Source of the DNA: Spirochaetaceae bacterium
Lineage (GTDB): Bacteria > Spirochaetota > Spirochaetia > DSM-2461
Direction: 5' to 3'
Assembly (NCBI GenBank): GCA_965224705.1
Contig: OZ245056.1
Coordinates: 2,080,001 to 2,144,000 of the forward strand
DNA length: 64,000 nucleotides
How positions within the stretch are numbered: the stretch's first letter is position 1; the number at the start of each line of letters is the position of its first letter. Position numbers and translations under genes: made by a program. Below the pieces are notes generated by a model. The model was not told the origin of the DNA, did not search any database, and was given only the letters and a program-made list of their open reading frames with translations. Of the stretch, positions 3,582 through 45,065 are shown piece by piece.

Positions 3582-3644
3582 GGGGGGCGGGGGGGAATAA
3601 GGCCTTTTTGCCTGGTTCCCTGTCAGAATGTGTGGGTGATCTAA

Positions 3645-3875: not shown

Positions 3876-3882
3876 TCAAAAG

Positions 3883-3939
3883 ATGCCTGGAAGAGGACTC
3901 GAACCTCCACGAGCTTGCGCTCACTAGTCCCTGAAACTA
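3883..3939 (-). repeat. Prophage att site: displaced 3' part of tRNA-Leu (57-bp direct repeat)
   Basis: atgcctggaagaggactcgaacctccacgagcttgcgctcactagtccctgaaacta is identical to 44442-44498. Confidence 0.97.
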
Positions 3940-11700: not shown

Positions 11701-14058
11701 AGAATCCGGGATGATGGTTGCCTTTGGCACACCTTCCGGGGCATACTCCCAGCCGTCTGCCAGTTCCCTGTAAGTTGGCCTTTGCGCCGCTGATTTCAAT
11801 GCATTCCTCTTCACTGAGGCCATTTGCCGGTCTACAGGATAGGCAGGAGCTGTTATTGTCTCTTTGGGCAGAATAATACCGGGATCCCAGGGAGGGATTT
11901 CCCCGGAATCTGCATCAAAAATCTCCTGGGCATAAGGAACAAGAACAAGCGTTCCTGCATTGTCACTCTGCTGACTGATCGAGACACACTGCACCTTGAG
12001 TGCCTCCTTGCCCCGCTTGCCAATGATATATTGATTGCCTACTTCAATTTTACCAGCCTCTACCGGCGACTCGAAAGCAGCCTCATAGACAACACCGGAT
12101 TCGGCCAGGCCTGTAACTGGAAAAATCTGAACCCCATCTGATTCACCATTCATGCGAACCATAATCGAGTAACTTTCATCAGATTCCAGATAAACCGGCT
12201 CATCCAGACTCACCCCGGTAGAGTTCCCCCCCTCATCTGCGGCGATGCTCTTCACCTTTCCGCTGGACAGCCCATACAGAAACATATCGCTGGCCAGATA
12301 CCCAACGGCACCGGGGAAGGCCGAAAGATGCTCAAAATCCTGAGGAACCGTTATCTGCATAGTGCGCCGGTTGAGTTTGGCCAGCTCGAAAGCCCCGATC
12401 TTCATCGCCTGCCCAGTGCCGGTGATGCCGATCAAGCTCATTTCATCCGTGTCTTTTCCCGGCTCAACGTCAAAGCTGATGACACCATCGCCATCAATCC
12501 CAATTGTCCGGGACACCTCCTGATACCCGCTGTCTCTGTCAATCCATTTTATCGTGAGCGAATCTGGAACATCTTTGAACTTTCGGGTTAAACTCATGCC
12601 GCCTCTGGTGTTACGGGGAGTCAGTTGAAAATCTATTGACCCACTCTTTTCTTCAGTTCTTACTCCAAAGTGACCGTTATATGCATACAGAACTCCGCGG
12701 CCTGCGGCGGCAATCATCGAAGATATCTGCTCGATGGTATAATCGCCAGACACAACCGCATCGAAAGAGAACCCTTTTGCCGTACAAAACACATGCCAGG
12801 CTTCAAAGTCTTCCCAGATTATTTTACTATCTGGAACGGGATTCTTCCCCACATGCTCATCCGTCAAAAGATAAAGCATGGCGGATGCGGGATTCCGGGT
12901 CGGTCTCTTCAGCCAGCTTATCGGCCCAGTCCCGGAACCGCTATAGTCACGGCAGCTCAAACGGGCCATGACGTTGAACTTATCAACAATGCCGCTGAGC
13001 TGACTCGTCGATTTAATCTTGAGTGACACCATTTTGCATTCAGAAAGGAACCCATCAGATACCGGATCTGTATTGCCGTCAAGATCCTGAATACGGCACG
13101 TTAGAACATCCCAGTATGCAGTATCCAGATAATGCACAGCGTCTCTTCCTTCGGTTATCCGCCGCACCGTGACAGTATAAGAAGCCGGGGACAAAGAAAC
13201 CGAAAAGCGTCTGCGGACATAATCGGCATTCGCCGAAATAGAGTAATTATTATCACTGTTGTAGCCAGTTTCTGCTGAGATTTTAATATTGAACAGGACA
13301 GACGCACTGCCCTCATTGGCATCCTCGTCGTAATGGCGGAGACCCGCCGGGAACGTTATCCCTATCTCGATCTCTGTTGTCCCATCCGGCGTTGTGTGCA
13401 CAGCAGACTCGCCGGACTGCAGCTCAGAACCTATCGTCAGCTCACTGACAAGGCGGGGATACTGGAGCGTTCCGTCTGATAGGACAGCCTCATAATGAGA
13501 AAGAGGGTTGTCGCCGATCTCTGGATCGCTGTATTGCACATCCGAATACCCGAGACAGAAGAGCTGATGGTACCACTGCTCATCAGACTGGTAACTCGTG
13601 TAAGGCGTGCCGCATAAATCAGGTACGTGATAGTGCTCGCCAAAGATCAGAGGTACCCGGCCATTGGGCCTGTAGCGGTTGTTTCCTCCCCGGATGCTGG
13701 CCGCCGGATTGGGACGGTCAATCTCGCTAAACTTCTGTGCCTGCTTCTGCGCCCGTTCCGCTTCCCGCCGAAGCTCCTCGTTTTTTGCAATAGCAACACC
13801 GGCGACAACGCCAGATCCCACGGCAAGGATGCCGCCTATAATGGCAACGGCCGCAACGACGGCAGGAGCAGCTGGAACCGACACAATGGTAACAGATACC
13901 GCTGAGTCCGGGATGTCCTCGATCTTTCCGCAGGGCTTGCCATCGATAAAAATCCTATCCCCTTCCTGTGTGCGAATTTCATCTCTTTTCTGCCAGGCGA
14001 CACAGCCCATCGTCCCGGGAACGTCGATATACCTAACCTTTAACACAGTAGACCCCAT
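8797..14058 (-). CDS. Tail tip / host-specificity protein (lambda J-like) with two C-terminal 8-blade BNR/Asp-box beta-propellers
   Basis: N-terminal J-like motifs (VPLIFGEH, TRNPASAM, LTPRN); 16 repeats of 39 aa (GTILTSTDGTSWTARASGTTVTLLDARYANGLWVAVG) in two blocks of 8. Confidence 0.9.
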   Translation of the reverse strand: MGSTVLKVRYIDVPGTMGCVAWQKRDEIRTQEGDRIFIDGKPCGKIEDIPDSAVSVTIVSVPAAPAVVAAVAIIGGILAVGSGVVAGVAIAKNEELRREAERAQKQAQKFSEIDRPNPAASIRGGNNRYRPNGRVPLIFGEHYHVPDLCGTPYTSYQSDEQWYHQLFCLGYSDVQYSDPEIGDNPLSHYEAVLSDGTLQYPRLVSELTIGSELQSGESAVHTTPDGTTEIEIGITFPAGLRHYDEDANEGSASVLFNIKISAETGYNSDNNYSISANADYVRRRFSVSLSPASYTVTVRRITEGRDAVHYLDTAYWDVLTCRIQDLDGNTDPVSDGFLSECKMVSLKIKSTSQLSGIVDKFNVMARLSCRDYSGSGTGPISWLKRPTRNPASAMLYLLTDEHVGKNPVPDSKIIWEDFEAWHVFCTAKGFSFDAVVSGDYTIEQISSMIAAAGRGVLYAYNGHFGVRTEEKSGSIDFQLTPRNTRGGMSLTRKFKDVPDSLTIKWIDRDSGYQEVSRTIGIDGDGVISFDVEPGKDTDEMSLIGITGTGQAMKIGAFELAKLNRRTMQITVPQDFEHLSAFPGAVGYLASDMFLYGLSSGKVKSIAADEGGNSTGVSLDEPVYLESDESYSIMVRMNGESDGVQIFPVTGLAESGVVYEAAFESPVEAGKIEVGNQYIIGKRGKEALKVQCVSISQQSDNAGTLVLVPYAQEIFDADSGEIPPWDPGIILPKETITAPAYPVDRQMASVKRNALKSAAQRPTYRELADGWEYAPEGVPKATIIPDSVELTAEGAYGSIILRMNRQQNLTNFLHYELQVSDDNAAWHSLRMDGLDWRGAADEWTAWQGDTLVHPGILPAVDEDGDPVGRTLCYRVRRIARAAPDNFVSDMSSASAVTTLVEAGSIATGAVTANTIEVSVLNALIANIKDNLTVGQATGYTSYKGAGSVTAPEVGDRIVHLDNDELLVSRWGGGSWEPLMRLGGDDLALELYQDGTKRYSMALDDGVAVGRGVLGLADALMIGERRIGPISLPFDGTSWTARTSGTTAYLRDARYANGLWVINGDSGTILTSTDGTSWTARASGTTVTLLDARYANGLWVINGDSGTLLTSTDGIDWTQRASGTTVTLWDVRYADGLWVVTGASGTILTSVDGTSWTARASGTTVTLLDARYANGLWVIVGYSGTILTSVDGTSWTARASGTTVTLLDARYANGLWVAVGSSGTILTSVDGTSWTARASGTTVTLLDARYANGLWVAVGSSGTILTSVDGTSWTARASGTTVTLWDALYADGLWVAVGYYGTILTSNDGTSWTARASGTTQVLRDAYHGNGLWVVVGSGGTILTSVTTIEEGELPYAPQSAQTGLQLQERGLSVLHGDWEFRVWPITEGETDALELGIFSGGAMQMKSTLKNGIMSLVLAGSLTALGGCKVPAGVEWETVTPLTIENLYEVRYGNGLWVAVGDSGTILTSTDGITWTARVSGTTAYLRDARYANGLWVINGDSGTILTSTDGTSWTARASGTTVTLLDARYANGLWVINGDSGTLLTSTDGISWTKRVSGTTVTLLDARYANGLWVAVGSSGTILTSTDGTSWTARASGTTVTLWDARHANGLWVIVGYSGTILTSPDGITWTVRVSGTAQNLYEVRHANGLWVVAGYSGTLLTSPDGITWTVRDSGTEAYLYEARYGNGLWVVVGSYGTLLTSTDGTSWTARTSGTTAYLRDARYANGLWVAVGGGGTILTSRELDIWENRNKQ
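8830..10962 (-). repeat. Two coding tandem arrays of 117-bp mosaic repeats (~8830-9730 and ~10040-10962)
   Basis: 117-bp period; 9413-9621 is identical to 10724-10932. Confidence 0.95.
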
Positions 14059-22545: not shown

Positions 22546-23244
22546 TTAGATACCCATAGTCGCTTGCGCGGCAAGATTCAAAGAGTCCTCTATCGTTTTC
22601 CCAAGCTTAACTTCACCTGCGGCACCCGACGCCGATACAGGCGCAGAACCCTTCACAGCATCCCTGGATGCTTTTTCATACCCGCGCTTCTCTGCTTCAG
22701 CAATCAACTCCATCAACCTCTTGCCCTTCTTAAATATTTCATCCTGATCCTTTCCAGCCAGAATGAACCTGTCTTCTTCCTTGATTCCACAGCGTTCAGC
22801 CGCTAAACCCACACATTCACCGAGGAACTTTTCCATACGCTCAGATTCTTCACGCTCCTGTTTTTCAGAACGTTCCGACTCTTCCGCCTTCTTGCGCTCC
22901 TCTTCAGACATATGCTGTTTACGCAATTCCGCCATTTCTTTTTCGATGGCGGATACCCGCCTGGCCTGCCCGTCGCGGTCGGCCTTGAGCTTTTTCAGCT
23001 CCTCTTCCTTTGACTCAAGCTGTTTAGCCAATTCGTCAGGTTTTGGAGCATTGAGCAGCTTCTCTTGCTCTTTGAGCTTTACAAGCTCTTCCTCTTTCGC
23101 CTTCAGCTGTGCTTTCAGTTCCTCCGGTTTCAGCCCTTCGCCGCCACCCTGAGGCCCCGCATTACCATCTGGGCTCCCGTTGTCTCCGGTGTCACCTGCA
23201 CCGCCTGCAGCACCGGAATCTGGTGCCAGCAAAATTTTGAACAT
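22546..23244 (-). CDS. Capsid scaffolding protein
   Basis: Gly-rich N-terminus and charged coiled coil, upstream of the MCP. Confidence 0.75.
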   Translation of the reverse strand: MFKILLAPDSGAAGGAGDTGDNGSPDGNAGPQGGGEGLKPEELKAQLKAKEEELVKLKEQEKLLNAPKPDELAKQLESKEEELKKLKADRDGQARRVSAIEKEMAELRKQHMSEEERKKAEESERSEKQEREESERMEKFLGECVGLAAERCGIKEEDRFILAGKDQDEIFKKGKRLMELIAEAEKRGYEKASRDAVKGSAPVSASGAAGEVKLGKTIEDSLNLAAQATMGI

Positions 23245-23312
23245 TTCTCCTCCCCTGGTTTGCTTAAAAGCACACCCCAGTTGATTTTTTAGAGGGTAGA
23301 AGGATTGCTATG

Positions 23313-23340
23313 GACAAAACTAGATAAGTTTTGTCATTTT
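23313..23340 (-). promoter_or_regulatory. Late-promoter palindrome copy (GACAAAACT-AGATA-AGTTTTGTC) upstream of scaffold/MCP
   Basis: Perfect 9-5-9 inverted repeat; shared with 8761 and 27952. Confidence 0.72.
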
Positions 23341-23352
23341 GTTAAAATCTGC

Positions 23353-23381
23353 TTGACGTTCTTCCAGAAGGAGGATATATT
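23353..23381 (+). promoter_or_regulatory. Sigma70-like promoter antisense to the late operon
   Basis: TTGACG-N17-TATATT. Confidence 0.55.
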
Positions 23382-23588
23382 CAAAGAGGATCGGGGGCTA
23401 CGAAGCTCTTCGGAGTGGATAACCCCGGGCCACCCGTCTTTCAAGCAGGTGCAAGGATTGTGAGCAATTTTCCACATCCACCTTGCACCTGGATAATAGC
23501 AGAAATTGAAATATCTCTTAAGGTTTATCGAATCATTGCGTTCAGGCTTACTTGTAATGCCGTGCCGAAAAGGACTTTTCCAGAATCC

Positions 23589-24968
23589 CTATCTTAGAAT
23601 TTCTGTCCTGCTTTTTTTCCAAAGAATATCTTTATTCATAATTACCACCACTTCGTTGATATTTCCTTTTATTTTAACCCTACCGCGAATTGCCCTATCA
23701 ATAATCTCTGAAGGAACTCTGGCCGACATAACTAAAACAACTTTGTTAGCCTGATGCCCAGCCTTTCGGAGATTCCTGCTGATAGAACCATAAGTTCCAG
23801 ATTGATTGGTTTTGAACTCCCATAATTCACCGTCGATAAGCGCATCAGCTGATTTAACACCTTTTTCCATTGACCTTTCCAAAAGCTGCACTCTATACCC
23901 ATTATCCGCCAGGATTTTGGCTGTTTTTAGATTTTGTGCATCTTCCGGTTCCTCGCGGTCACTGTCCTTACGAATCCAACCGCCTGTCTTACTTTTGTAA
24001 ACAAAATTACCTGGCAGTGTCCGGCCAGTGCCAACACTCTTATACCACTTTCCATAGGATATCCAGGGCCGCTTCCCATCACCCCGCACATACCGCATTT
24101 TAGGAGGGTACCCAGGGATTTGAGCCCGCAATCTACAGCGGCACTGGATATCAAAGCTGGCTACACCTGACTGTAACGGGGCCGCAACTTTCCCAACGGC
24201 GGTATCAAAAAAGCCATCCTCGCCGCGCCTTTGTCCGTCTAATGCTCCATGCTCGGGTCTGGTGCGCTTATCTAGAGCTGCATCCCAGATATATTCAAGT
24301 TCAATTCCAAGGGATTCCGCCTTACCATAGACCACCTGCTGCCCTTCCACTGCCGCTCGATGACCTTCTGTCCGTGCGATCCTCATTGAGGCATATGCTG
24401 CCCCTTTTTTTGTGTATTGATTATTATCATCAAATCCAAGCACCGCGCTTATTCGCTTGCTCATCTTGTTGTAAGACTCCCCGCGCACAAGGGACAAGGT
24501 TATTTCATTGCGCACCTTATTGACCTTAACCGCCCTATCCGTTGCTAAAGCTTTAGAGTCAGCAAGTTTTGAAAGGGGAAAAGTTACGACAGAATCAACG
24601 GCATCACCAGGGACCCTGCCCCAATCGAATGCAAACCCTGCGTCTTGATCAATCGCCCAAGCGTGACGATAGGACGAATCCTTGAAAACAGTTATTGTCT
24701 GTTTCTCAATATAAGTATCAACATTCTTCAAGTACTTCCCGAGCGTTTGCTTTACGTTTTTTTCAAGCGCCTGTAAGCGCTTGTAACGGTTCATTTCTGT
24801 CCAGTAGAGTTTTCCATCCTTTGCATATTTACGGTATAGGCCAGCAAGGTCCTGCTGTATTGATTCAAGCGCAACTTTATACGACTTAACAATCTCCTGT
24901 TCCGTCTCGTCAATACGTTTAAGGAGGTCTCCCTGAATATCTTTATATAATTCGTCAAAGAGTTTCAT
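23589..24968 (-). CDS. Minor head protein (MuF/SPP1 gp7) with C-terminal PD-(D/E)xK nuclease (CdiA-like tRNase) extension
   Basis: RIARTE, WDAALDKRTRPEH, IQCRC MuF motifs; C-terminal SADALIDGELWEFKT..SISRNLRKAGHQA; start moved to the ATG overlapping the portal stop. Confidence 0.82.
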   Translation of the reverse strand: MKLFDELYKDIQGDLLKRIDETEQEIVKSYKVALESIQQDLAGLYRKYAKDGKLYWTEMNRYKRLQALEKNVKQTLGKYLKNVDTYIEKQTITVFKDSSYRHAWAIDQDAGFAFDWGRVPGDAVDSVVTFPLSKLADSKALATDRAVKVNKVRNEITLSLVRGESYNKMSKRISAVLGFDDNNQYTKKGAAYASMRIARTEGHRAAVEGQQVVYGKAESLGIELEYIWDAALDKRTRPEHGALDGQRRGEDGFFDTAVGKVAAPLQSGVASFDIQCRCRLRAQIPGYPPKMRYVRGDGKRPWISYGKWYKSVGTGRTLPGNFVYKSKTGGWIRKDSDREEPEDAQNLKTAKILADNGYRVQLLERSMEKGVKSADALIDGELWEFKTNQSGTYGSISRNLRKAGHQANKVVLVMSARVPSEIIDRAIRGRVKIKGNINEVVVIMNKDILWKKSRTEILR

Positions 24969-28660: not shown

Positions 28661-29061
28661 CTCCGTGTTCCACACTGTTCCACACTGTTCCACATTGTGG
28701 AACAAATAAATATTTACTATATATAGAATTAAAAATAAGTGTTCCACACTGTGGAACACTCTTAATTTTTTTTCCCATAATAATTTACAGCGTAATTTTA
28801 AGGGTTTTTCGAATAATTTTTCGCAATATATACGCATGTGCGCGCGCATGCGCGTACATGCGCGTACGCGCGCGCATACGTATATATATATTTTTTTAGT
28901 AAATATAGTTATAATATTGAGGAATAAATCTTTACCGGGCAAATATTTAAAAGTGTTCCACAGTGTGGAACAGTGTGGAACACTCAAAATTAATTTCTTT
29001 CTATAAAAAGACTTATTTTTGGAAAAGTGTTCCACAGTGTGGAACAGTGTGGAACACGGAG
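28661..29061. repeat. Putative phage replication origin: TGTTCCACA/TGTGGAACA iterons in inverted arrangement around AT-rich and purine-pyrimidine tracts
   Basis: Iteron clusters at ~28665, 28739, 28952, 29027; directly downstream of the primase-helicase. Confidence 0.75.
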
Positions 29062-34462: not shown

Positions 34463-34657
34463 TCATTTTGTTGTTTCTGCGGCTTTATCGTTAATCCACT
34501 GCTGCAGGGCTTCTTCGTAGATGATAATGCGTCTTCCCAATCTGACGTGCGGGAGCCCATTGCTCCGTACCTGACGGAGTGTATGCGATGTGGATATCCG
34601 CAGGAGCTCGGCAACCTCTTCAACGGTGAGTGCCCGTCCGGTATGCGAATAGTTCAT
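34463..34657 (-). CDS. xis: Excisionase-like HTH protein
   Basis: LTVEEVAELLRIS..LPHVRLGRRI. Confidence 0.8.
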   Translation of the reverse strand: MNYSHTGRALTVEEVAELLRISTSHTLRQVRSNGLPHVRLGRRIIIYEEALQQWINDKAAETTK

Positions 34658-36585
34658 ACCGTGCCTCCTGTGTCCACCGCCGTCCAGGTGATTCCATCAG
34701 CGCTGGTCAATATGGTGCCGGAGGCACCGGTTACCACCCACAGGCCATCGGCATAGCGCACATCATTGAGGTCCTTTCTTGTCCCGCTGTCCCGCTGAGT
34801 CCAGTCAATGCCGTCGGAGCTGGTCAGAATAATGCCGCAGTAACCTACGGCCACCCACAGGTTATTGCCGTGGTACGCAAGATGGATGTGCTTTTCCGTC
34901 CCCTCGGTGTCCTGCTCCGCCCAGGTGATGCCATCGGTACTGGTCAGGATGGCGCCGTTTGTGCCGGTTACCACCCACAGGCCATTGGCGTGATGCACTT
35001 CATAGAGGGTCTCTGCTGTCCCGGTATCTCTTTGTGTCCAGTCAATGCCATTGTAGCTAGTCAGGATGATGCCGTAGTAACCCGCGATCACCCAAAGATC
35101 ATCGGCGTGGTGCACATCAATGAGGTTCTCCTTCATCCCGATTGAGCTAATGACGGCGGGATTGGCCCGCTGCGTCCAGTCAATCCCATCGGTACTGGTC
35201 AGGAGGGTACCGGAGGAACCCACAACTACCCACAGGCCATCGGCATGATGCACTTCATAGAGGTACTCCGCCGTCCCGGTGTTTTGCTCCATCCAGCTGA
35301 TGCCATCGGTGCTGGTCAATATGGTACCGGAGGTACCCACAGCCACCCACAGCCCATTGGCGTAGCGAGCATCACGGAGGTACGCTGTCGTCCCACTGGT
35401 CCGTGCCGTCCAGCTGGTGCCATCGGTGCTGGTCAAAAGGGTGCCGTAGGAACCCACAACCACCCACAGGCCATTGCCGTAGCGAGCTTCATAGAGGTAC
35501 GCCTCCGTCCCGCTGTCTCGAACCGTCCAGGTGATTCCATCAGGGCTGGTCAGGAGGGTACCGGAGTCACCCGCAACCACCCACAGCCCATTGGCGTGGC
35601 GCACTTCATAGAGGTTCTGCGCCGTCCCGCTAACCCGCACCGTCCAGCTGATACCATCATTGCTGGTCAATATAGTGCCGGAGTAACCCACAATCACCCA
35701 CAGCCCATTGGCGTGGCGCGCATCCCAAAGGGTCACCGTTGTCCCGCTGGCCCGCGCCGTCCAGCTGGTGCCATCGGTGCTGGTCAGAATAATGCCGCAG
35801 TAACCTACGGACACCCACAGGTTATTGCCGTGGTACGCAAGATGGATGTGCTTTTCCGTCCCCTCGGTGTCCTGCTCCGCCCAGGTGATGCCATCGGTAC
35901 TGGTCAGGATGGCGCCGTTTGTGCCGGTTACCACCCACAGGCCATTGGCGTGATGCACTTCATAGAGGGTCTCTGCTGTCCCGGTATCTCTTTGTGTCCA
36001 GTCAATGCCATTGTAGCTAGTCAGGATGATGCCGTAGTAACCCGCGATCACCCAAAGATCATCGGCGTGGTGCACATCAATGAGGTTCTCCTTCATCCCG
36101 ATTGAGCTAATGACGGCGGGATTGGCCCGCTGCGTCCAGTCAATCCCATCGGTACTGGTCAGGAGGGTACCGGAGGAACCCACAACTACCCACAGGCCAT
36201 CGGCATGATGCACTTCATAGAGGTACTCCGCCGTCCCGGTGTTTTGCTCCATCCAGCTGATGCCATCGGTGCTGGTCAATATGGTGCCGACACTACCCAC
36301 AGTCACCCACAGGCCATTGGCGTAGCGCACATTAGTGAAGGCCGCCGTCGTTCCGCTGTACCGTGCCGTCCAGCTGATTCCATCAGGGCTGGTCAGGAGG
36401 GTACCGGAGTAACCCACAGCCACCCACAGGCCATCGGCATAATGCACATCATAGAGGTATTCCGTCGTTCCGCTGTTCCGCTGCATCCAGCTGATGCCAT
36501 CGGTGCTGGTCAATATGGTGCCGACACCACCCAAGACCACCCACAGCCCATTGCCGTAACGGGCATTACTGAGGTTCCTTAACAT
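34654..36585 (-). CDS. Stand-alone 16-blade BNR/Asp-box beta-propeller repeat protein, paralog of the tail-tip C-terminus
   Basis: 643 aa made only of ~39-aa repeats; RBS AAGGGGGAG; overlaps the upstream Cro-like gene and has an ATGA overlap with xis; no signal peptide. Confidence 0.88.
   Translation of the reverse strand: MLRNLSNARYGNGLWVVLGGVGTILTSTDGISWMQRNSGTTEYLYDVHYADGLWVAVGYSGTLLTSPDGISWTARYSGTTAAFTNVRYANGLWVTVGSVGTILTSTDGISWMEQNTGTAEYLYEVHHADGLWVVVGSSGTLLTSTDGIDWTQRANPAVISSIGMKENLIDVHHADDLWVIAGYYGIILTSYNGIDWTQRDTGTAETLYEVHHANGLWVVTGTNGAILTSTDGITWAEQDTEGTEKHIHLAYHGNNLWVSVGYCGIILTSTDGTSWTARASGTTVTLWDARHANGLWVIVGYSGTILTSNDGISWTVRVSGTAQNLYEVRHANGLWVVAGDSGTLLTSPDGITWTVRDSGTEAYLYEARYGNGLWVVVGSYGTLLTSTDGTSWTARTSGTTAYLRDARYANGLWVAVGTSGTILTSTDGISWMEQNTGTAEYLYEVHHADGLWVVVGSSGTLLTSTDGIDWTQRANPAVISSIGMKENLIDVHHADDLWVIAGYYGIILTSYNGIDWTQRDTGTAETLYEVHHANGLWVVTGTNGAILTSTDGITWAEQDTEGTEKHIHLAYHGNNLWVAVGYCGIILTSSDGIDWTQRDSGTRKDLNDVRYADGLWVVTGASGTILTSADGITWTAVDTGGTV
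34819..36285. repeat. Internal 507-bp direct repeat (34819-35325 = 35779-36285, one mismatch seen)
   Basis: 960-bp offset line-by-line identity. Confidence 0.92.
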
Positions 36586-36808
36586 CGCACTCCCCCTTTT
36601 CGTAAGCCTGTTCGAGTTCCGACCAATTTGCGAATCCGATATACAGGGCGATATCCCGGCGGATTCTCGGTGATTGGCGGACGCCTGCGATCACCCGTTC
36701 AACGGTCGTCTTTCCGTAATCGCTGTTGTTGGCGAAAGATGTAATCGATTCGCCTTTTCTTGCCATGTGCTGCGCGATGTATGCCCGTAGATCTTTCTTT
36801 TTTTCCAT
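36566..36808 (-). CDS. Cro-like HTH regulator
   Basis: SITSFANNSDYGKTTVERVIAG HTH; RBS GAGGAG; early leftward operon. Confidence 0.7.
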   Translation of the reverse strand: MEKKKDLRAYIAQHMARKGESITSFANNSDYGKTTVERVIAGVRQSPRIRRDIALYIGFANWSELEQAYEKGECDVKEPQ

Positions 36809-36821
36809 GCATTTCTCCTCT

Positions 36822-36858
36822 TAGAAAATCCCGCCTGAGGCTCAATGCCTCAGACGGG
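36822..36858 (-). terminator. Intrinsic terminator-like hairpin upstream of the Cro-like gene
   Basis: CCCGTCTGAGGC-ATTGA-GCCTCAGGCGGG followed by ATTTTCT; variant copies at ~39438-39475 and ~42055-42092. Confidence 0.6.
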
Positions 36859-36859
36859 G

Positions 36860-37125
36860 TGGAAATTCCATTTTTAAGATGGCCACCTTTAACTTCTTTT
36901 CGCATAACTACTTCTATACCCCCGCCATTTAGGGGGTTTCAGGGCTATTCCATTTTTTTCATACCTCGGTCGCGTACCCTGACTCTCGGGACCGCATTTA
37001 CCCTGCCTCCTACTCACAACCCCTTTCCGGTACCCATACTCGTCGTACGCCCGAGTATGGCCCGGCCATCGGCGCTTTCTATCAGGCAGGGGGTTAACAG
37101 ACACCTTTAAGGCTGCCTGTTTTTC
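36860..37125 (-). ncRNA. Putative structured RNA leader (three copies)
   Basis: Nested stems, with compensatory change in the diverged third copy (see findings). Confidence 0.5.
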
Positions 37126-37133
37126 TTGCTTCT

Positions 37134-37655
37134 CTAATCTCCTCCTTCTTTTCCTTTAATGAACGCAACCCAGATTGTCGTGCGTGTCGTCTTATGGCCG
37201 AACAAAGGGGATTCAGGGGTCAGTTTCAGGATCTGTGACACGGGAATTTCCTTTGTGGACCATTTTAGAATTAACACACCGTATGGTTTTAAGACGCGGA
37301 AACACTCGGCAAAGCCGCGTGTCAGAACAGTGCGCCAGTTATCGCCCAGAGTGCCGTACTTCCTGGCTGTCCAGCCGTTTATTCCATTTCGGCGGTGATA
37401 ATGCGGGGGGTCAAACACAACAAGCCGGAAGGTTTCATCTGTGAACGGAAGTTCTGTGAAATCGCCAGCGATATCCGGGTCGATTAACAGTTCGCGAAAG
37501 CCGTCTTTGCTGCTCCTGTCCTTGAGGGTGCATCGCTCTCTCCGCTTATCCAGGAAGATTGCCCTTTCATCTGTTTTGTTGAACCAGAACATTCTTGATC
37601 CGCAGCAGGTATCGAGTACTGGCGGAAGAACGCTGGGCAATCTGTCCTTTTTCAT
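37134..37655 (-). CDS. Phage SAM-dependent (amino-)DNA methyltransferase, copy 1
   Basis: VLDTCCGSRMFW (motif I) and VFDPPH (motif IV). Confidence 0.85.
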   Translation of the reverse strand: MKKDRLPSVLPPVLDTCCGSRMFWFNKTDERAIFLDKRRERCTLKDRSSKDGFRELLIDPDIAGDFTELPFTDETFRLVVFDPPHYHRRNGINGWTARKYGTLGDNWRTVLTRGFAECFRVLKPYGVLILKWSTKEIPVSQILKLTPESPLFGHKTTRTTIWVAFIKGKEGGD

Positions 37656-37717
37656 ACTTTCCCTATCCCTTTCATGCCGATATAATAGGCATAACCTCTA
37701 TTAGAGGGCGTGTAGAT

Positions 37718-37760
37718 AATGTAACAACACAAGCATTTATTGTCAATGAGTTTGTTGTTA
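37718..37760 (-). promoter_or_regulatory. Early leftward promoter 1 with operator-like inverted repeat
   Basis: Minus strand TTGACA-N17-TACATT; flanking TAACAACA...TGTTGTTA. Confidence 0.7.
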
Positions 37761-37780
37761 TTTTTTGGAGTTTATTGGCT

Positions 37781-38461
37781 TTGAATAGTTATTTATCTAG
37801 AATAAAAAGAATTATCGAAGAAAAAAAAATTACTGAAACTGCATTTGCCAAGGCTATCGGATCACATCAAGCAACAATTAATGCAATGTTTCAGCGTGGT
37901 ACAAACCCTCGTTCAGACTTATTAGAAGCGATATCAAAGACATTTACAGTTTCAGAGAAATGGCTCTTAACCGGCGAAGGCCCCATGTACCAGGACGAGC
38001 CGGGCTTCCCAAAGCCGCAGAGCATCCAGCATCTCAACGGGCATATAACGGACAACCCTGATGAGGAGGGGGCCTTTGTGGTGCCGATGCTGGAGCAGTC
38101 TGTTTCGGCAGGGAAGGGGAGCCATCTGGAGGATGATGATAACATCGCCGGATATGTTGCCCTGCCGCCGGCCATCACGGCTCATGGAGCTGCACTGGCG
38201 GCTCTCCCTGTTCGGGGTGATTCAATGTATCCGACAATTGATAATGGTGATATGGTGGTATGCGACGGGGGCGGTTATGATGGGGAAGGTATCTACGTCC
38301 TTCGCATGGATGGGGAAGCTCTCGTAAAGCGGCTGGCTAAGCGGCCCGGCGGTGTTATGGTTATCTCAGACAACGGCAGCTACCCGGATTTCGAGGTGTC
38401 CAGGGATACTCCGCTTGATGTTATTGGAAGGATTCGGGCGGTTGTGAAGGTGGTGAAGTGA
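37781..38461 (+). CDS. CI/LexA-type repressor, copy 1 (HTH variant A plus S24 peptidase)
   Basis: TTG start after GGAG; HTH, WLLTGEG, SAG cleavage site, GDSM and VKRL catalytic motifs. Confidence 0.92.
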   Translation: MNSYLSRIKRIIEEKKITETAFAKAIGSHQATINAMFQRGTNPRSDLLEAISKTFTVSEKWLLTGEGPMYQDEPGFPKPQSIQHLNGHITDNPDEEGAFVVPMLEQSVSAGKGSHLEDDDNIAGYVALPPAITAHGAALAALPVRGDSMYPTIDNGDMVVCDGGGYDGEGIYVLRMDGEALVKRLAKRPGGVMVISDNGSYPDFEVSRDTPLDVIGRIRAVVKVVK

Positions 38462-38574
38462 TATGAAATAGAAAAGATTCTGAGGTGATGGATGAGAGAA
38501 AATAGATTGAGCTATAGAATTCTATTGCTGCAGCTCATATAAACAATGGGCAGCTAAGCTGCGAGGAAGGAGAA

Positions 38575-38832
38575 ATGGAAAAAAGAAATTCGGGAGTAGA
38601 TCAGGAAATAGTAGAAGAAATCTCAAAATGCAAAACAAGGGAAGCACTACACTCTGTCTTTGAGGTACGCGGCCTTAATGATGTTAGGGAGAAAAGACTT
38701 TATCTCAAGGCCTGCACTGGTGAGATCGCAACATATTATGAAGATGGCTCTGATGATTTGACTGATGATCAACGATACCTTGATGATGAGTTTATGTTTC
38801 TAGACGGAACCTGGAGAGCACTTTCTCAATGA
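38575..38832 (+). CDS. Small acidic hypothetical protein, copy 1
   Basis: RBS AAGGAG; ATGA-coupled to the metallopeptidase gene. Confidence 0.75.
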   Translation: MEKRNSGVDQEIVEEISKCKTREALHSVFEVRGLNDVREKRLYLKACTGEIATYYEDGSDDLTDDQRYLDDEFMFLDGTWRALSQ

Positions 38833-39398
38833 GTTATGATAAGATACGTAAATCTATCAATGAAATTATAGCTGGTAAACATAGTGGCAAAGATCTTTCA
38901 GCGGATCAGATCAAGAACTTCATTAATGCATTTAAATCACTACTCGCTCCAGCATTAAAAGATTCAATATTTGCACACTATAAACATGCCATAGAATATC
39001 TCGTTCGGGAACATGAACAAACTCAAAGACCTATTTTGTATACAGAAGGACACATCCCATCTTCTAAGAGAGCTATTGCCAAATATTTGCGAGGCGGATA
39101 TGTAATAGCGACAAGTAAGGATTTAGATGTCAGAGAAAGACGTATTCAGCTTGGCCATGAACTGGGGCACATTCTTATAAATAATATCAACAACACCATC
39201 TACAAGACTGAAAATCTTTCTGGTTTTCCTGACAATAAATCAAGAGAATTCATGGCAAGTCTTATAAGTTTGTCAATGCATATAACCCAGAGTGACTTTT
39301 ACAAAGGAGAAACGTGTAAGAAATATCAGTATGATGAAACTCAACTATCAGAGCTTGCTGAGGAAATTATAGGTCTGGCCAGATCGGTTTTGAAGTGA
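38829..39398 (+). CDS. ImmA/IrrE-like Zn metallopeptidase, copy 1
   Basis: RERRIQLGHELGH (HExxH) plus downstream EFMA. Confidence 0.78.
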   Translation: MSYDKIRKSINEIIAGKHSGKDLSADQIKNFINAFKSLLAPALKDSIFAHYKHAIEYLVREHEQTQRPILYTEGHIPSSKRAIAKYLRGGYVIATSKDLDVRERRIQLGHELGHILINNINNTIYKTENLSGFPDNKSREFMASLISLSMHITQSDFYKGETCKKYQYDETQLSELAEEIIGLARSVLK

Positions 39399-39750
39399 GT
39401 AAATCAGGATTCTCGTTTCTCTCTATTGCTTACTCCTTAGAAAATCCCGCCTGAGACTTAAATGGCTCAGACGGGGCGGAAATTTCATTTTGAGACGGCC
39501 ATCTCTAACTCTTTGTCCTCATAACTATTTTTATACCCCCGCCATTTAGGGGGTTTCAGGGCTATTCCATTTTTTTCATACCTCGGTCGCGTACCCTGAC
39601 TCTCGGGACCGCATTTACCCTGCCTCCTACTCACAACCCCTTTCCGGTACCCATACTCGTCGTACGCCCGAGTATGGCCCGGCCATCGGCGCTTTCTATC
39701 AGGCAGGGGGTTAACAGACACCTTTAAGGCTGCCTGTTTTTCTTGCTTCT

Positions 39751-40272
39751 CTAATCTCCTCCTTCTTTTCCTTTAATGAACGCAACCCAGATTGTCGTGC
39801 GTGTCGTCTTATGGCCGAACAAAGGGGATTCAGGGGTCAGTTTCAGGATCTGTGACACGGGAATTTCCTTTGTGGACCATTTTAGAATTAACACACCGTA
39901 TGGTTTTAAGACGCGGAAACACTCGGCAAAGCCGCGTGTCAGAACAGTGCGCCAGTTATCGCCCAGAGTGCCGTACTTCCTGGCTGTCCAGCCGTTTATT
40001 CCATTTCGGCGGTGATAATGCGGGGGGTCAAACACAACAAGCCGGAAGGTTTCATCTGTGAACGGAAGTTCTGTGAAATCGCCAGCGATATCCGGGTCGA
40101 TTAACAGTTCGCGAAAGCCGTCTTTGCTGCTCCTGTCCTTGAGGGTGCATCGCTCTCTCCGCTTATCCAGGAAGATTGCCCTTTCATCTGTTTTGTTGAA
40201 CCAGAACATTCTTGATCCGCAGCAGGTATCGAGTACTGGCGGAAGAACGCTGGGCAATCTGTCCTTTTTCAT
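39751..40272 (-). CDS. Phage SAM-dependent methyltransferase, copy 2
   Basis: Identical to copy 1. Confidence 0.85.
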   Translation of the reverse strand: MKKDRLPSVLPPVLDTCCGSRMFWFNKTDERAIFLDKRRERCTLKDRSSKDGFRELLIDPDIAGDFTELPFTDETFRLVVFDPPHYHRRNGINGWTARKYGTLGDNWRTVLTRGFAECFRVLKPYGVLILKWSTKEIPVSQILKLTPESPLFGHKTTRTTIWVAFIKGKEGGD

Positions 40273-40334
40273 ACTTTCCCTATCCCTTTCATGCCGATAT
40301 AATAGGCATAACCTCTATTAGAGGGCGTGTAATC

Positions 40335-40375
40335 AATATAAAAGCATTTGCTTTAATTGTCAACGCTTTTGCTTT
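40335..40375 (-). promoter_or_regulatory. Early leftward promoter 2 with two 14-bp operator-like palindromes
   Basis: Minus strand TTGACA-N17-TATATT; AAAGCATTTGCTTT (40341-40354) and AACGCTTTTGCTTT (40362-40375), 21 bp apart. Confidence 0.75.
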
Positions 40376-40397
40376 GTTTTTTTCGGAGATCAGTTCT

Positions 40398-41078
40398 TTG
40401 AACGAATATTTATTTAGACTAAAAAAAGTTATGGACGAAAAAAATTTTTCCGAAACAGCATTTGCTCGTGCTATTGGGTCAAGCCAAGGGTCTATCAACT
40501 CCATGTTTAGGCGAGATACAGTTCCCAAAGTTGACTTTTTGAAAGATATAGCGGGCAGATTTACGGTGAACCTGAACTGGCTTTTAACCGGCGAAGGCCC
40601 TATGTATCAGGACGAGCCGGGCTTCCCAAAGCCGCAGAGCATCCAGCATCTCAACGGGCATATAACGGACAACCCTGATGAGGAGGGGGCCTTTGTGGTG
40701 CCGATGCTGGAGCAGTCTGTTTCGGCAGGGAAGGGGAGCCATCTGGAGGATGATGATAACATCGCCGGATATGTTGCCCTGCCGCCGGCCATCACGGCTC
40801 ATGGAGCTGCACTGGCGGCTCTCCCTGTTCGGGGTGATTCAATGTATCCGACAATTGATAATGGTGATATGGTGGTATGCGACGGGGGCGGTTATGATGG
40901 GGAAGGTATCTACGTCCTTCGCATGGATGGGGAAGCTCTCGTAAAGCGGCTGGCTAAGCGGCCCGGCGGTGTTATGGTTATCTCAGACAACGGCAGCTAC
41001 CCGGATTTCGAGGTGTCCAGGGATACTCCGCTTGATGTTATTGGAAGGATTCGGGCGGTTGTGAAGGTGGTGAAGTGA
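40398..41078 (+). CDS. CI/LexA-type repressor, copy 2 (HTH variant B plus identical S24 peptidase)
   Basis: Same length as copy 1; only the first 60 aa differ. Confidence 0.92.
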   Translation: MNEYLFRLKKVMDEKNFSETAFARAIGSSQGSINSMFRRDTVPKVDFLKDIAGRFTVNLNWLLTGEGPMYQDEPGFPKPQSIQHLNGHITDNPDEEGAFVVPMLEQSVSAGKGSHLEDDDNIAGYVALPPAITAHGAALAALPVRGDSMYPTIDNGDMVVCDGGGYDGEGIYVLRMDGEALVKRLAKRPGGVMVISDNGSYPDFEVSRDTPLDVIGRIRAVVKVVK

Positions 41079-41191
41079 TATGAAATAGAAAAGATTCTGA
41101 GGTGATGGATGAGAGAAAATAGATTGAGCTATAGAATTCTATTGCTGCAGCTCATATAAACAATGGGCAGCTAAGCTGCGAGGAAGGAGAA

Positions 41192-41449
41192 ATGGAAAAA
41201 AGAAATTCGGGAGTAGATCAGGAAATAGTAGAAGAAATCTCAAAATGCAAAACAAGGGAAGCACTACACTCTGTCTTTGAGGTACGCGGCCTTAATGATG
41301 TTAGGGAGAAAAGACTTTATCTCAAGGCCTGCACTGGTGAGATCGCAACATATTATGAAGATGGCTCTGATGATTTGACTGATGATCAACGATACCTTGA
41401 TGATGAGTTTATGTTTCTAGACGGAACCTGGAGAGCACTTTCTCAATGA
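41192..41449 (+). CDS. Small acidic hypothetical protein, copy 2
   Basis: Identical to 38575-38832. Confidence 0.75.
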   Translation: MEKRNSGVDQEIVEEISKCKTREALHSVFEVRGLNDVREKRLYLKACTGEIATYYEDGSDDLTDDQRYLDDEFMFLDGTWRALSQ

Positions 41450-42015
41450 GTTATGATAAGATACGTAAATCTATCAATGAAATTATAGCTGGTAAACATA
41501 GTGGCAAAGATCTTTCAGCGGATCAGATCAAGAACTTCATTAATGCATTTAAATCACTACTCGCTCCAGCATTAAAAGATTCAATATTTGCACACTATAA
41601 ACATGCCATAGAATATCTCGTTCGGGAACATGAACAAACTCAAAGACCTATTTTGTATACAGAAGGACACATCCCATCTTCTAAGAGAGCTATTGCCAAA
41701 TATTTGCGAGGCGGATATGTAATAGCGACAAGTAAGGATTTAGATGTCAGAGAAAGACGTATTCAGCTTGGCCATGAACTGGGGCACATTCTTATAAATA
41801 ATATCAACAACACCATCTACAAGACTGAAAATCTTTCTGGTTTTCCTGACAATAAATCAAGAGAATTCATGGCAAGTCTTATAAGTTTGTCAATGCATAT
41901 AACCCAGAGTGACTTTTACAAAGGAGAAACGTGTAAGAAATATCAGTATGATGAAACTCAACTATCAGAGCTTGCTGAGGAAATTATAGGTCTGGCCAGA
42001 TCGGTTTTGAAGTGA
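41446..42015 (+). CDS. ImmA/IrrE-like Zn metallopeptidase, copy 2
   Basis: Identical to 38829-39398. Confidence 0.78.
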   Translation: MSYDKIRKSINEIIAGKHSGKDLSADQIKNFINAFKSLLAPALKDSIFAHYKHAIEYLVREHEQTQRPILYTEGHIPSSKRAIAKYLRGGYVIATSKDLDVRERRIQLGHELGHILINNINNTIYKTENLSGFPDNKSREFMASLISLSMHITQSDFYKGETCKKYQYDETQLSELAEEIIGLARSVLK

Positions 42016-42484
42016 GTAAATCAGGATTCTCGTTTCTCTCTATTGCTTACTCCTTAGAAAATCCCGCCTGAGACTTAAATGGCTCAGACGGGGCGGAAAT
42101 TTCATTTTGAGACGGCCATCTCTAACTCTTTGTCCTCATAACTATTTTTATACCCCCGCCATTTAGGGGGTTTCAGGGCTATTCCATTTTTTTCATACCT
42201 CGGTCGCGTGCCTTGACTCTCGGGACCGCATTTACACTGTCTCCTACTCACGCCTTTCCCGGCACCCATACCCGTCGCGCGTCCGTGTATGCTCCGGTCA
42301 TCGGGCTTTCTATCAGACAGGGGTTAACAGACAGCCTTAAAGGTGTCTGTTTTTCTTGCTTCTCCAACTTCCTCTATGCCGATATAATGGATATAGACTA
42401 TGCTGGAAGAACATGTAAGTAAGTTAACTCAATATCGGGGATTTGTCAACCCGGTTCTTTATTTTTTTTCGGGAATCAATCCCT

Positions 42485-42693
42485 TTGAGCGAATATGTAT
42501 TTAGATTAAAACAAATTATAAACGGAAAATCAGTGGGCAACATCCGCATGGGTAGGGAAGCTTTCATAAAGCGGCCTGACGAAGTCATAGTATTTTCGAT
42601 AATATCAGGTATCCGACCGACGAAGTATCCAAGGAAGTCCCTCTTGATGTCGTTGGCCGGGTCAGGGCGGTTGTGAAGGTGATGAAGGGGTAA
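42485..42693 (+). pseudogene. Third, internally deleted and frameshifted CI repressor
   Basis: MSEYVFRLKQIINGK matches the CI N-terminus; IRMGREAFIKR and DNIRYPTDEVSKEVPLDVVGRVRAVVKVMKG* match the CI C-terminus. Confidence 0.85.
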
Positions 42694-42769
42694 AAGTAAA
42701 AGTGATTAAGAATTTTGTTCATTCGATGAGCTATAATGAGTTGCATAAATCTATCAAAGAGGAAGAATT

Positions 42770-43213
42770 ATGAATACTATTGGTATCGGTAAAGTTGTAG
42801 TGGATAATACCAAACCTGGTTGGAATTATCCCCATTTTCATGTAATTCTTTTCAAGGAGAACGGAGATAACTCTTTTTACGCATATTGTATGGAACTCGG
42901 CATTGATGCTTTTTCGGAAGACTCTGCAAAAGCAGCCTTTTCTGAAATTGCGGCCAATGTATTAGATGACATCAACCAGTATGCCAATGAAGATTCTCTC
43001 TTCAAATGTCTCCTGGATATCGCCCGGAGTGATCATAATGATGTTTTCTGGAAAGAGTATCGGATTGCAGAAACAGAGCTTGCACAATATGGCGAAGACC
43101 TTGGAATTCATTTTGAAAGGAACGGCAGGGCAGCCGTGACTAATCAGGGTTTCCTAAGTATTAAACCAACTCCTCCGCCAATTGAGCAACAGCATGACGC
43201 TGCTCATCAGTGA
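42770..43213 (+). CDS. Hypothetical protein, HicB-like N-terminal fold
   Basis: HVILFKE..FYAYCMELGI..SAKAA pattern; RBS GAGGA. Confidence 0.55.
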   Translation: MNTIGIGKVVVDNTKPGWNYPHFHVILFKENGDNSFYAYCMELGIDAFSEDSAKAAFSEIAANVLDDINQYANEDSLFKCLLDIARSDHNDVFWKEYRIAETELAQYGEDLGIHFERNGRAAVTNQGFLSIKPTPPPIEQQHDAAHQ

Positions 43214-44327
43214 TCGCTGTATAATGCTCTGTCATATCCACTGACGAATGCCCTGTGAGTCTACGCAGCGCGTGATCAGCCACTCGGCCTCTCAGCATTG
43301 AATTATACCAATGCCGCCAGGCGTGAAAAGAAAGTCCTCGTTTTTTTATTTCATCAGGGGCTATGCCGACTGTTTCAAGCATGTGTTTATAGGTATTCGA
43401 GATACTGCGTTTCCCAATTGGCTTGTCAGGCGACGAACCCCAGAAGACGAAGTCTCCCCGCCATGGATTCACTGAGGCCAGCTGGTGTAAGGCTTCAACC
43501 GTTCTCGACGGAACGGGGACAATTCTGGGCTTGTTCCCCTTGGGAAGTTTCAGGCCCTCCCCATCCTGCCAGTTGCGCTTTACATCTATCCAGTCATCAT
43601 GAACACAATCAACTTTCAATCCTCGGCATTCGCCGAGTCTCATTCCTGTTGTCGCGGCCAGGAGGTTTATCGCCTTCTGCCGGGGATCGGTCCATTCCTG
43701 CCCAAAAAATGCACGGACTTCCTCCGGGCGAAGTATCACCCTCTCCCGTCTAGTTACGGGAAGCCGTTTAATTCTCTTGGCGGGATTAACCGATATCAGC
43801 CCCAGCCTCTCCGCCTCATTTAAGGGTACAGTCACTGCCTGCATAATCGCGTTGACACGTCTGTTGGAGATCCCCAGGGTTGAGAGCCAATGGATTATTT
43901 CTTCCATTAGCATAGCGTTTACTTTCCGCAGCCGCAGCGATTCCAACTTCCTAGAACCAAGCCAGTCTACCACTTTGTGAACAGCGCTCCTATTTGCTTT
44001 TATATAGACAGCCGACATCGGCCGTCCCATGGAATGCCTGTTTTTGAGATGGTGCCCATCATCTGACCAGAAGCCGATAAGGTAATTGGAGAAAAGAGGA
44101 TTTTCATTTCCGGTATTGATTCCAAAGCGCTTATACCATTGTGCTGCAATGGCATCGGCTCCCGCCTTGCTTGCCGGCGAGAGATGCTCCGCGTCACGGC
44201 CCAGCTCATTGCGCATTGACCCCGCAGATCGCCAGCAGGAATAATCCTGTTTGGCCGCATCCCAGAAAGCCGCGTAATAGTTTTTGAAGCCCTTCCGCCT
44301 GTACAGTATAAAAGCTTTACGCATCAT
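43161..44327 (-). CDS. int: Tyrosine integrase
   Basis: TGMRLGE, HAWRH, LTGHSS..MTEHY catalytic residues; next to att; start moved to ATG 44327. Confidence 0.95.
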   Translation of the reverse strand: MMRKAFILYRRKGFKNYYAAFWDAAKQDYSCWRSAGSMRNELGRDAEHLSPASKAGADAIAAQWYKRFGINTGNENPLFSNYLIGFWSDDGHHLKNRHSMGRPMSAVYIKANRSAVHKVVDWLGSRKLESLRLRKVNAMLMEEIIHWLSTLGISNRRVNAIMQAVTVPLNEAERLGLISVNPAKRIKRLPVTRRERVILRPEEVRAFFGQEWTDPRQKAINLLAATTGMRLGECRGLKVDCVHDDWIDVKRNWQDGEGLKLPKGNKPRIVPVPSRTVEALHQLASVNPWRGDFVFWGSSPDKPIGKRSISNTYKHMLETVGIAPDEIKKRGLSFHAWRHWYNSMLRGRVADHALRRLTGHSSVDMTEHYTAITDEQRHAVAQLAEELV

Positions 44328-44345
44328 GAGAACTATAAGCTTGAT

Positions 44346-44373
44346 AGAAAAGCTAGTCAATAAACTAGTCAAT
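44346..44373. repeat. Putative integrase arm-type sites (2x CTAGTCAAT, 12-bp period)
   Basis: AGAAAAGCTAGTCA shared with 4032-4045. Confidence 0.65.
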
Positions 44374-44442
44374 ATGAAAGCCATAGATTTCATTGTGGTG
44401 TGTAGTTGTGATTAATTTCTTATTCCACAATGGGTTAAGGTA

Positions 44443-44526
44443 TGCCTGGAAGAGGACTCGAACCTCCACGAGCTTGCGCTCACTAGTCCCTGAAACTAGC
44501 GTGTCTACCAATTTCACCATCCAGGC
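44443..44526 (-). tRNA. tRNA-Leu(CAG), integration target
   Basis: GCCTGGATGGTGAAATTGGTAGACACGCTAGTTTCAGGGACTAGTGAGCGCAAGCTCGTGGAGGTTCGAGTCCTCTTCCAGGCA: cloverleaf, long variable arm, anticodon CAG. Confidence 0.97.
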
Positions 44527-44777
44527 AGGATGTGTATAGGCGAGAGTACCTTCTAGGTGGATGTATGTCAATTACTGCACAGGGTTTTCATGCAATCTTC
44601 TTTGTGATGGATTTCTGATCCCTCCCTGCTTATTCGTACTTTTAGGATTTCTCCATCCTTTTCCTCCCCCACCCACACATTCTGACAGGAGCCTGTAAAA
44701 TAACGGATACTCAATTTCTACCGGATCAGATGTCAGCTTTCAGATTCCGGTGCATTTTCTTGTGACCGCTATTCTAA

Positions 44778-45065
44778 GGAGTCTGTCGGACTTCCGCCTC
44801 ATGGCTCGATTTTTGCCCTTCTCTCCAGAAGCAAGCCTCCTGCTTGCTTCTGGAGAGCCGCCTTCGTTCGTTTTCGCCGCCATCCGTGGCGGCTTTTCCT
44901 CGCTATCGCTCGGCACTCTCTCAGGATGCGAGTCCATAGACTCGCATCCCCTGTTGCTGCGTTGCCAAAATACTCACGTAGCCCAGCTACGCTCCGTTTT
45001 TGTCGCCTTGCATCAGGAAAAAATCATCAAAAATCGCCTCGAAGCCTTAAAGTCCGACAGACTCC
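44778..45065. mobile_element. MITE-like element with TIR GGAGTCTGTCGGACTT, flanked by TAA
   Basis: Perfect terminal inverted repeats; related copies at 52956-53040 and 58877-59039. Confidence 0.8.

Follow-up and report, generated by a model that had tools for sequence, protein, structure and literature searches.

Introduction

Textbook phage immunity gives each prophage one specificity, which is changed by replacement. In lambdoid immunity exchange (lambda, 434, 21; P22 c2 heads) the DNA-binding head of the repressor travels together with its operators. Here we analysed 64,000 nucleotides (the window) of a Spirochaetaceae bacterium (GTDB lineage Bacteria; Spirochaetota; Spirochaetia; DSM-2461; GenBank assembly GCA_965224705.1, contig OZ245056.1, positions 2,080,001 to 2,144,000 of the forward strand), numbered from its first letter. 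A prophage in this window carries an immunity unit twice in tandem, and the two units encode CI repressors, CI-1 and CI-2, with different helix-turn-helix (HTH) heads.

Different repressor alleles in tandem are described for CTXphi, pre-CTXphi and RS1 arrays, where, in the available text of the reports, different rstR and ig-2 alleles follow one another and repression is allele-specific (PMC11509585, PMC3016788, PMC7326730). The locus described here is similar in that its tandem units are alike except for the repressor and promoter region. In those arrays, as far as the same text goes, whole filamentous prophages or satellites are integrated serially, each with its own replication genes; in contrast, a 2.6-kb module is repeated here inside one tailed prophage whose integrase is present at about 1x, and the repressors share an identical S24 domain. 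The mycobacteriophage LRRHood provides a case of immunity theft, in which an extra repressor on a recently acquired segment between direct repeats is proposed to shield against another phage type (PMC3029335). Our locus also has an added repressor segment bounded by direct repeats. In the available part of that report, the LRRHood repressor comes from an unrelated cluster and sits in a non-temperate carrier without binding sites, whereas CI-2 would come from a sibling, and has its own promoter and sites in a temperate phage.

Heteroimmunity is stated for 434 and lambda in the accessible part of one paper (PMC6550527). As in lambdoid phages, the repressors here combine an HTH with an S24 domain, and head and operators appear to have moved jointly. 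Unlike the usual exchange, which replaces the region, both versions were kept; each promoter has two operator slots, and a DNA methyltransferase (MTase) gene and a leader separate the promoter from the cro-like gene. The P2/WPhi switch, with face-to-face Pe and Pc promoters (NC_001895 annotation; PMC1904263, as partly available), is similar in having two sites about 21-22 bp apart that are interleaved with the early promoter, which a repressor promoter may face as well. The candidate for such a promoter at our locus amounts to a conserved TATAAT, and P2 C presumably has no S24 domain, unlike the CIs here. Heteroimmune P2-type switches are described without stacking in the accessible text of two reports (PMC1904263, PMC3448106). 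The stack works like a CTXphi array or immunity theft, yet misses a defining feature of each. The initial annotation knew of no described tandem multi-immunity array. Stacking of several cassettes inside a single tailed prophage was not described in the literature covered, which leaves out most subscription journals and supplements; the whole-prophage arrays of CTXphi make the arrangement less unprecedented.

Results

The tandem units differ in one block

The unit of 2,617 bp occurs twice, at an offset of 2617 (Table 1). Base for base, the two copies agree along 36915-37714 (800 bp) and 37991-39592 (1602 bp), with 0 differences in 2,402 bp. Between these arms lies the variable block (37715-37990 versus 40332-40607), with 96 mismatches in 276 bp and no indel; its codon changes comprise 15 synonymous and 29 non-synonymous ones. 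The block arrived by recombination, since so many changes of both kinds stand beside 0 in 2,402 bp. Divergence in place was ruled out by the 96 changes beside 0, the synonymous changes and a third head equidistant from both (below).

The tandem repeat reported in the initial annotation was reproduced, and read depth agrees with it. Its description of the copies as identical except for one indel-free block needs an amendment at the first ~95 bp of leader 1 (36820-36914), which differ from leader 2. The block had also been said to cover exactly the promoter/operator region and the CI head. It does contain the head, the leftward promoter and the slots, but the conserved TATAAT lies outside it. 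The leader had been called structured, and this applies to copy 1 (fold z -5.3) but not to copy 3 (z -1.0, a weak fold).

Table 1. Features of the immunity array and its prophage (window coordinates)
Feature	Coordinates	Strand	Evidence or remark
Left attachment (att) core, prophage end	3883..3939	.	57 bp, repeated without mismatch in direct orientation at 44442-44498
80-aa HTH protein, Cro-like, first gene past leader 1	36566..36808	-	phrog_925 E 4e-5; TIGR04111 E 3e-5, below cut-off
Leader 1, terminator-like hairpin at end (36858-36830)	36820..37133	-	fold z -5.28; hairpin with T-tail
DNA methyltransferase, copy 1	37134..37655	-	phrog_954 E 8e-64; PADLOC MTase_II E 4e-57
TATAAT common to the three copies, candidate -10 of cI promoter, outside block	37681..37686	+	three-way alignment; -35 poor; absent from promoter prediction list
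Variable block 1: leftward promoter, slots, start signals, CI-1 head	37715..37990	.
CI-1, 226 aa, HTH and S24 domain	37781..38461	+	Pfam HTH_3 and Peptidase_S24 above cut-off; phrog_4
85-aa acidic protein, copy 1, no family assigned	38575..38832	+
HExxH metallopeptidase (ImmA/IrrE-like), copy 1	38829..39398	+	PF06114 E 3e-5; phrog_87
Leader 2, chimeric: left part as in leader 3, right part as in leader 1, crossover within 39532-39592	39436..39750	-
DNA methyltransferase, copy 2, identical to copy 1	39751..40272	-
Variable block 2: leftward promoter (40363-40335), 14-bp palindromic sites, CI-2 head	40332..40607	.
CI-2, 226 aa, C-domain identical to CI-1	40398..41078	+	Pfam; PHROGs
Acidic protein and HExxH peptidase, copy 2, identical to copy 1	41192..42015	+
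Leader 3, ~85% identical to leader 1	42053..42374	-
Eroded third cassette	42375..42760	+	promoter and CI start 77% to block 2; two CI C-domain scraps 87%, 76%; peptidase gene start 79%; unit order
Tyrosine integrase, single copy	43161..44393	-	PF00589; tblastn on genome
Right att core, prophage end	44442..44498	.	inside tRNA-Leu (44442-44527)

CI-1 and CI-2 have different heads on one body

Our recount agrees with the initial one: CI-1 and CI-2 are identical at 31 of the first 60 residues and fully identical after residue 60, including the S24 domains (156/156 after residue 70). The recognition helices, HQATINAM in CI-1 and SQGSINSM in CI-2, fall on a predicted helix at 30-39. Changes in this helix are conservative (H/S, A/G, T/S, A/S, Q/R), and 9 of 14 residues around it are common to both proteins; in the 16 residues past it, 6 are identical. 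Both CIs matched the HTH family PF01381 above the cut-off and the S24 family PF00717 (E 4e-22), with A110-G111, S148 and K183 conserved in the homolog alignment. In the predicted structure the head overlays that of P22 c2 (Foldseek, root-mean-square deviation 1.9 Å over 63 residues, E 4e-3).

Both genes start with TTG behind GGAG, and the homolog P0003 has the same start. P0003 carries the third head, which is identical to each CI at 32 of 60 residues, while its body is identical at 96 of 110. The homologs P0004 and P0121 have heads identical at 13 of 59 residues, against 215 of 235 after the same WLLTGEG joint. In this CI family the heads thus vary while the body stays conserved. The repressors P0004, P0006 and P0121 have two HTH heads per chain, of which the outer one is exchanged at WLLTGEG.

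Promoter regions differ in two operator slots

The leftward promoter of block 1 has its -35 at 37746 and its -10 ending at 37718, with slots at 37724-37737 and 37745-37758, followed by GGAG and TTG. Alignment of all three promoter regions showed that TATAAT, TGTA, the leftward -35 and a T-run are kept, as are GGAG and TTG. The regions differ in a pair of 14-bp slots that flank the -35 at a spacing of 21 bp. The TATAAT may be the -10 of the cI promoter, facing the leftward one. cro is not directly opposite cI in this layout, and the 80-aa HTH gene is reached from the promoter only past the MTase gene and a 310-bp leader.

The block 2 slots, AAAGCATTTGCTTT and AACGCTTTTGCTTT (40341-40354 and 40362-40375), form a pair of palindromes with a half-site concordance of 30/36, which was reached in 0 of 150 shuffles when all geometries were searched. 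The promoter region of the eroded third cassette scored at chance level in the palindrome test (111/150 shuffles). All 8 half-sites of blocks 1 and 2 start with A and both heads keep Q30, which we take to be as in 434-type reading. Judged from heads and slots, the specificities of CI-1 and CI-2 are likely distinct, with partial overlap possible.

Leader 2 is a chimera and a third cassette is eroding

The three leaders bound the units as direct repeats. Leader 2 agrees with leader 3 alone in 31 alignment columns, which are confined to its left side, and with leader 1 alone in 46, confined to its right side; 0 columns match neither, a few at each end being outside homology. The left half is identical to leader 3, and the switch lies inside 61 bp common to all three leaders. 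Because leader 2 is a clean chimera with one switch, the tandem would be accounted for by a single unequal crossover that joined leader 3 to leader 1. As to what the leader is, a known RNA family was rejected (no Rfam match), and an open reading frame is unlikely given frame-breaking indels in leader 3. The first leader hairpin (37096-37121) is inverted in leader 3 (42326-42351) relative to leaders 1 and 2, with 96% complementarity.

Leader 3 and the relic of the third cassette together span 42053-42760. The relic keeps CI residues 195-226 at 66% amino-acid identity, and its promoter region matches block 2 at 81 of 123 positions and block 1 at 68 of 123. Given this third cassette, the lineage has stacked cassettes at least twice.

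The sequencing runs X3, X4 and X1 also contained a related element (depth 13-21), with joints 39702-40836, 41030-42643, 42687-39645, 42723-41203 and 43106-42647. Its contigs show the CI 3' end fused to a number of different neighbours, and a piece of leader fused to a truncated CI. There are weak hints that this element carries several CI 3' ends and other cassette relics, the joint sides being 25-75 letters at 88% likeness.

Contig depth supports a true tandem in one prophage

Contigs of four sequencing runs were compared with 39532-44760 (one unit, the relic, the integrase and host DNA), and depth was taken from pieces without mismatches only. Four shared pieces had depths of 15.1-15.6 in X3 and 18.8-21.2 in X4, whereas block 2, the relic, the integrase and the host flank had 6.7-9.7 and 9.7-10.9. 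A contig that exits at 40331 and re-enters at 40574, read as block 1, had 7.9 and 9.4. The ratio of shared to single depth was 1.84 (X3) and 1.97 (X4).

In X5, from a second sample, the three contigs listed within the unit have depth 2 and end at 40331, 40608 and 42209, which are the computed repeat limits; one internal break lies in the AAA run 41599-41601. Such breaks may have been left by a single long read across both copies or by two reads that stem from different copies. X1, from a second study, gave short depth-2 pieces of the shared part with zero cover on block 2 and the relic, and nothing was concluded from it.

The initial annotation had named two concatenated strain variants as the case to exclude, and with the shared part at ~2x rather than 1x, concatenation fails. 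In conclusion, the tandem in one prophage is real.

No close relative of the locus was found

The single-cassette versions that the initial annotation would look for among related spirochaetes did not turn up in 60 related genomes, 37 genomes of the order and 400 of the phylum. No close relative of the locus was present in the 60 related genomes or, by DNA comparison, in the 37 of the order. The 400 phylum genomes contained 13 with a distant CI (best E 2e-58) and no close relative. None was found in IMG/VR or GTDB contigs, nor among the matches listed for JGI metagenomes. The first NCBI-named CI homolog belongs to a Treponema metagenome-assembled genome (MAG), and the sole outside homolog of the HExxH peptidase among 83 candidates to a Spirochaeta MAG, which makes a spirochaete host plausible. 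We fetched 240 CI loci (166 of at least 10 kb), of which 237 had an S24 match and one a second, partial S24 match. A duplicated CI was found in none of the 240, and a CI at two places in none of 289 matched phage records. A small check around P2 met no second repressor in 60 listed rows out of 1,876 E. coli records, nor in 3 regions inspected; so small a sample, so near to P2 itself, does not speak against stacks in P2-like prophages.

Cargo genes and prophage setting

The acidic protein had no match in Pfam, PHROGs, PADLOC or NCBIfam, and no usable one in the Atlas. Searching the cargo genes against defence families gave a weak RmrA match only (E 0.0045). The acidic-protein and peptidase pair also occurs in another genome, G003 (L038 146-993), near a gene that resembles, and by sequence look is presumably, a GMP synthase. 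The acidic-protein homolog there has 72% identity and adjoins the peptidase gene, and tblastn found no CI on that contig. The pair may therefore be a mobile two-gene module, a unit of its own; in our prophage we take its position to be rexAB-like.

The prophage is 40.6 kb long with the 57-bp att repeat at its ends, in a genome of one 3.0-Mb contig (95% complete). It encodes integrase, terminase, portal, capsid, tape measure and tail genes, and tblastn matched the first two and the capsid at a single place each in the genome. It also encodes an AAA_24, PD-(D/E)XK and DUF669 set, which we assume to be akin to phage recombination modules. From its position, the 80-aa HTH protein probably has the Cro role. 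No excess integrase depth was found in the contigs of the sequencing runs, hence no sign of prophage induction.

Several other features were observed in the prophage. A 643-aa gene (34654-36585, minus strand) between the cro-like and excisionase-like genes is built of the tail protein's 117-bp repeats; it has exact stretches of up to 233 bp in common with the tail gene (8797-14058) and an internal exact repeat of 474 bp. It is possibly a donor for tail-tip variation. Just beyond the primase-helicase gene, 28661-29061 has iterated TGTTCCACA direct and inverted repeats and looks origin-like. The scaffold and head-protein region (22571-24869) has a second copy elsewhere in the genome, at G000:C1:1039600-1041790, with 91% and 74% identity. 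The prophage flanks (44770-45065 and 3614-3890) contain short dispersed repeats with dozens of genome copies.

Discussion

The explanation that fits best as a whole, to which we give an even chance, is a young tandem of a lambdoid-type immunity unit, made by a cross of sibling phages, in which CI-1 is the switch and CI-2 an extra shield. The tandem, the chimeric leader, the intact genes and the third relic are all present in the DNA, whereas the mechanism below is read from this anatomy and from established lambdoid biology. Two sibling phages, identical here save for a swapped operator and HTH block, would have recombined unequally, leader 3 of one with leader 1 of the other; a duplication of the unit followed by replacement of one block would fit too. 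Promoter 1 would read through MTase 1 and leader 1 into the cro-like gene and the genes for recombination and replication, so that CI-1 should hold lysogeny. Promoter 2 would read through MTase 2 into the hairpin and the end of the CI-1 operon only, and CI-2 should be dispensable for the switch since its promoter faces nothing else. With its own start signals and sites, CI-2 would repress an incoming type-2 phage. Such a lysogen would block both phage types, while the phage itself would be stopped mainly by type-1 lysogens. Expression of the two CIs, their distinct specificity and a benefit to the carrier are predicted on these grounds. Both CIs should fall together on DNA damage because both keep the self-cleavage residues, and they should mix because their C-domains are identical. 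Collapse of the array via the left (800-bp) arm would keep block 2, and via the right (1,602-bp) arm block 1. Type switching by such collapse, which the initial annotation suggested, is thus geometrically possible, but it was not seen and the 2x depth leaves little room for it (sample S3).

A number of observations weigh against this explanation. The zero divergence between the copies is as compatible with a transient accident as with selection, a single-cassette parent did not turn up in the searched genomes, IMG/VR, the JGI matches listed or GTDB contigs, and no RNA run holding the stretch was found. Contig depth is not a copy number, the compared segment ended short of the cro side, the depth of block 1 comes from a joint row, and X3 and X4 are one sample, perhaps the source of the assembly. 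In the same two-palindrome test that block 2 passed, block 1 scored 22, a value reached in 72 of 150 shuffles; it has instead a 39-bp imperfect inverted repeat with two asymmetric inverted sites (13/16; 8 of 200 shuffles). Its inner half-site AATGCT is 5/6 like one block 2 half-site, and given this half-site and the mild helix changes, cross-reading of the operators by the two CIs is possible. The claim of two immunity specificities at once therefore stands in part. Head and operator slots changed jointly as one block, but different reading of the operators is a prediction, qualified by the shuffle result of block 1 and the 9 of 14 common helix residues.

The same origin could also have left a neutral, short-lived by-product of a phage cross, its second cassette bringing no benefit and bound to collapse or to erode like the third. 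We consider this possible though rather unlikely. The 0 differences in 2,402 bp mark the tandem as very young, an eroded earlier cassette adjoins it, and two full CI copies occurred in none of the 240 loci and 289 phage records. RecA should readily remove repeats that are perfect over 800 and 1,602 bp, yet ~2x depth was seen in one sample and its signature in a second; stacking at least twice in this lineage also speaks against a mere accident. Taking the opposite direction, one may see stacking as a selected, repeated strategy, which we regard as unlikely at present. The leader repeats would be a crossover site that collects cassettes, the cro-proximal one governing lysis and the distal ones being shields or spares; RecA collapse would free pure types, and mixed dimers on asymmetric sites (e.g. 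block 1) would make a third specificity. It is doubtful, more so than either of these, that the CIs overlap in specificity (mesoimmune), so that the duplicate adds repressor dose or mixed dimers on the same promoters. The residues common around the recognition helix, the A at the start of all 8 half-sites and the block 1 inner half-site that resembles one of block 2 are in its favour, and partial, asymmetric immunity between related repressors is documented in the accessible part of one report (PMC6550527). The heads are only 52% identical, however, with 6 of 16 residues past the helix, and the slots differ widely.

Duplication kept for cargo dosage (the acidic protein and HExxH peptidase, or the MTase), with the second CI head as a passenger, seems highly improbable. 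The pair in G003, on a contig where tblastn matched no CI, is in line with a module of its own, but the cargo matched no defence family beyond the weak RmrA hit, and different, intact heads with matching slots would be left unexplained. We hold an assembly artefact, in which two strain variants or two whole prophages were merged, to be just as improbable. Such merging could explain why the copies are identical outside one block and why the junction lies in a 61-bp segment common to all three leaders, and no contig piece listed from the runs examined spans the whole array. Strain variants, however, predict that the shared part has the depth of the integrase, and it had 1.62 and 2.07 times that depth; a double lysogen predicts 2x integrase, which was at ~1x of host. 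To the left of the shared segment the contig is at 2x, but its exit into the relic accounts for 1x only, so that about 1x must enter the MTase side. The ~2x shared depth beside 1x blocks, integrase and host, together with X5 contigs that break at all three repeat limits, thus makes an artefact unlikely.

How an immunity type changes without a mismatched repressor-operator state is described as an open question in the available text of one paper (PMC6550527). The meaning of our locus is tempered by the existence of analogues, by the lack of a retrieved single-cassette relative and by a function deduced from anatomy. In any case it offers a clean natural experiment, since all differences between the repressors fall within the first 60 residues and each repressor has its own 14-bp slots beside it, which makes specificity, cross-talk and mixed dimers testable. 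If the extra-shield explanation is true, keeping old and new cassettes would widen the shield of the prophage without narrowing its host range, and stacking would be a route to a new immunity type that avoids the mismatched state.

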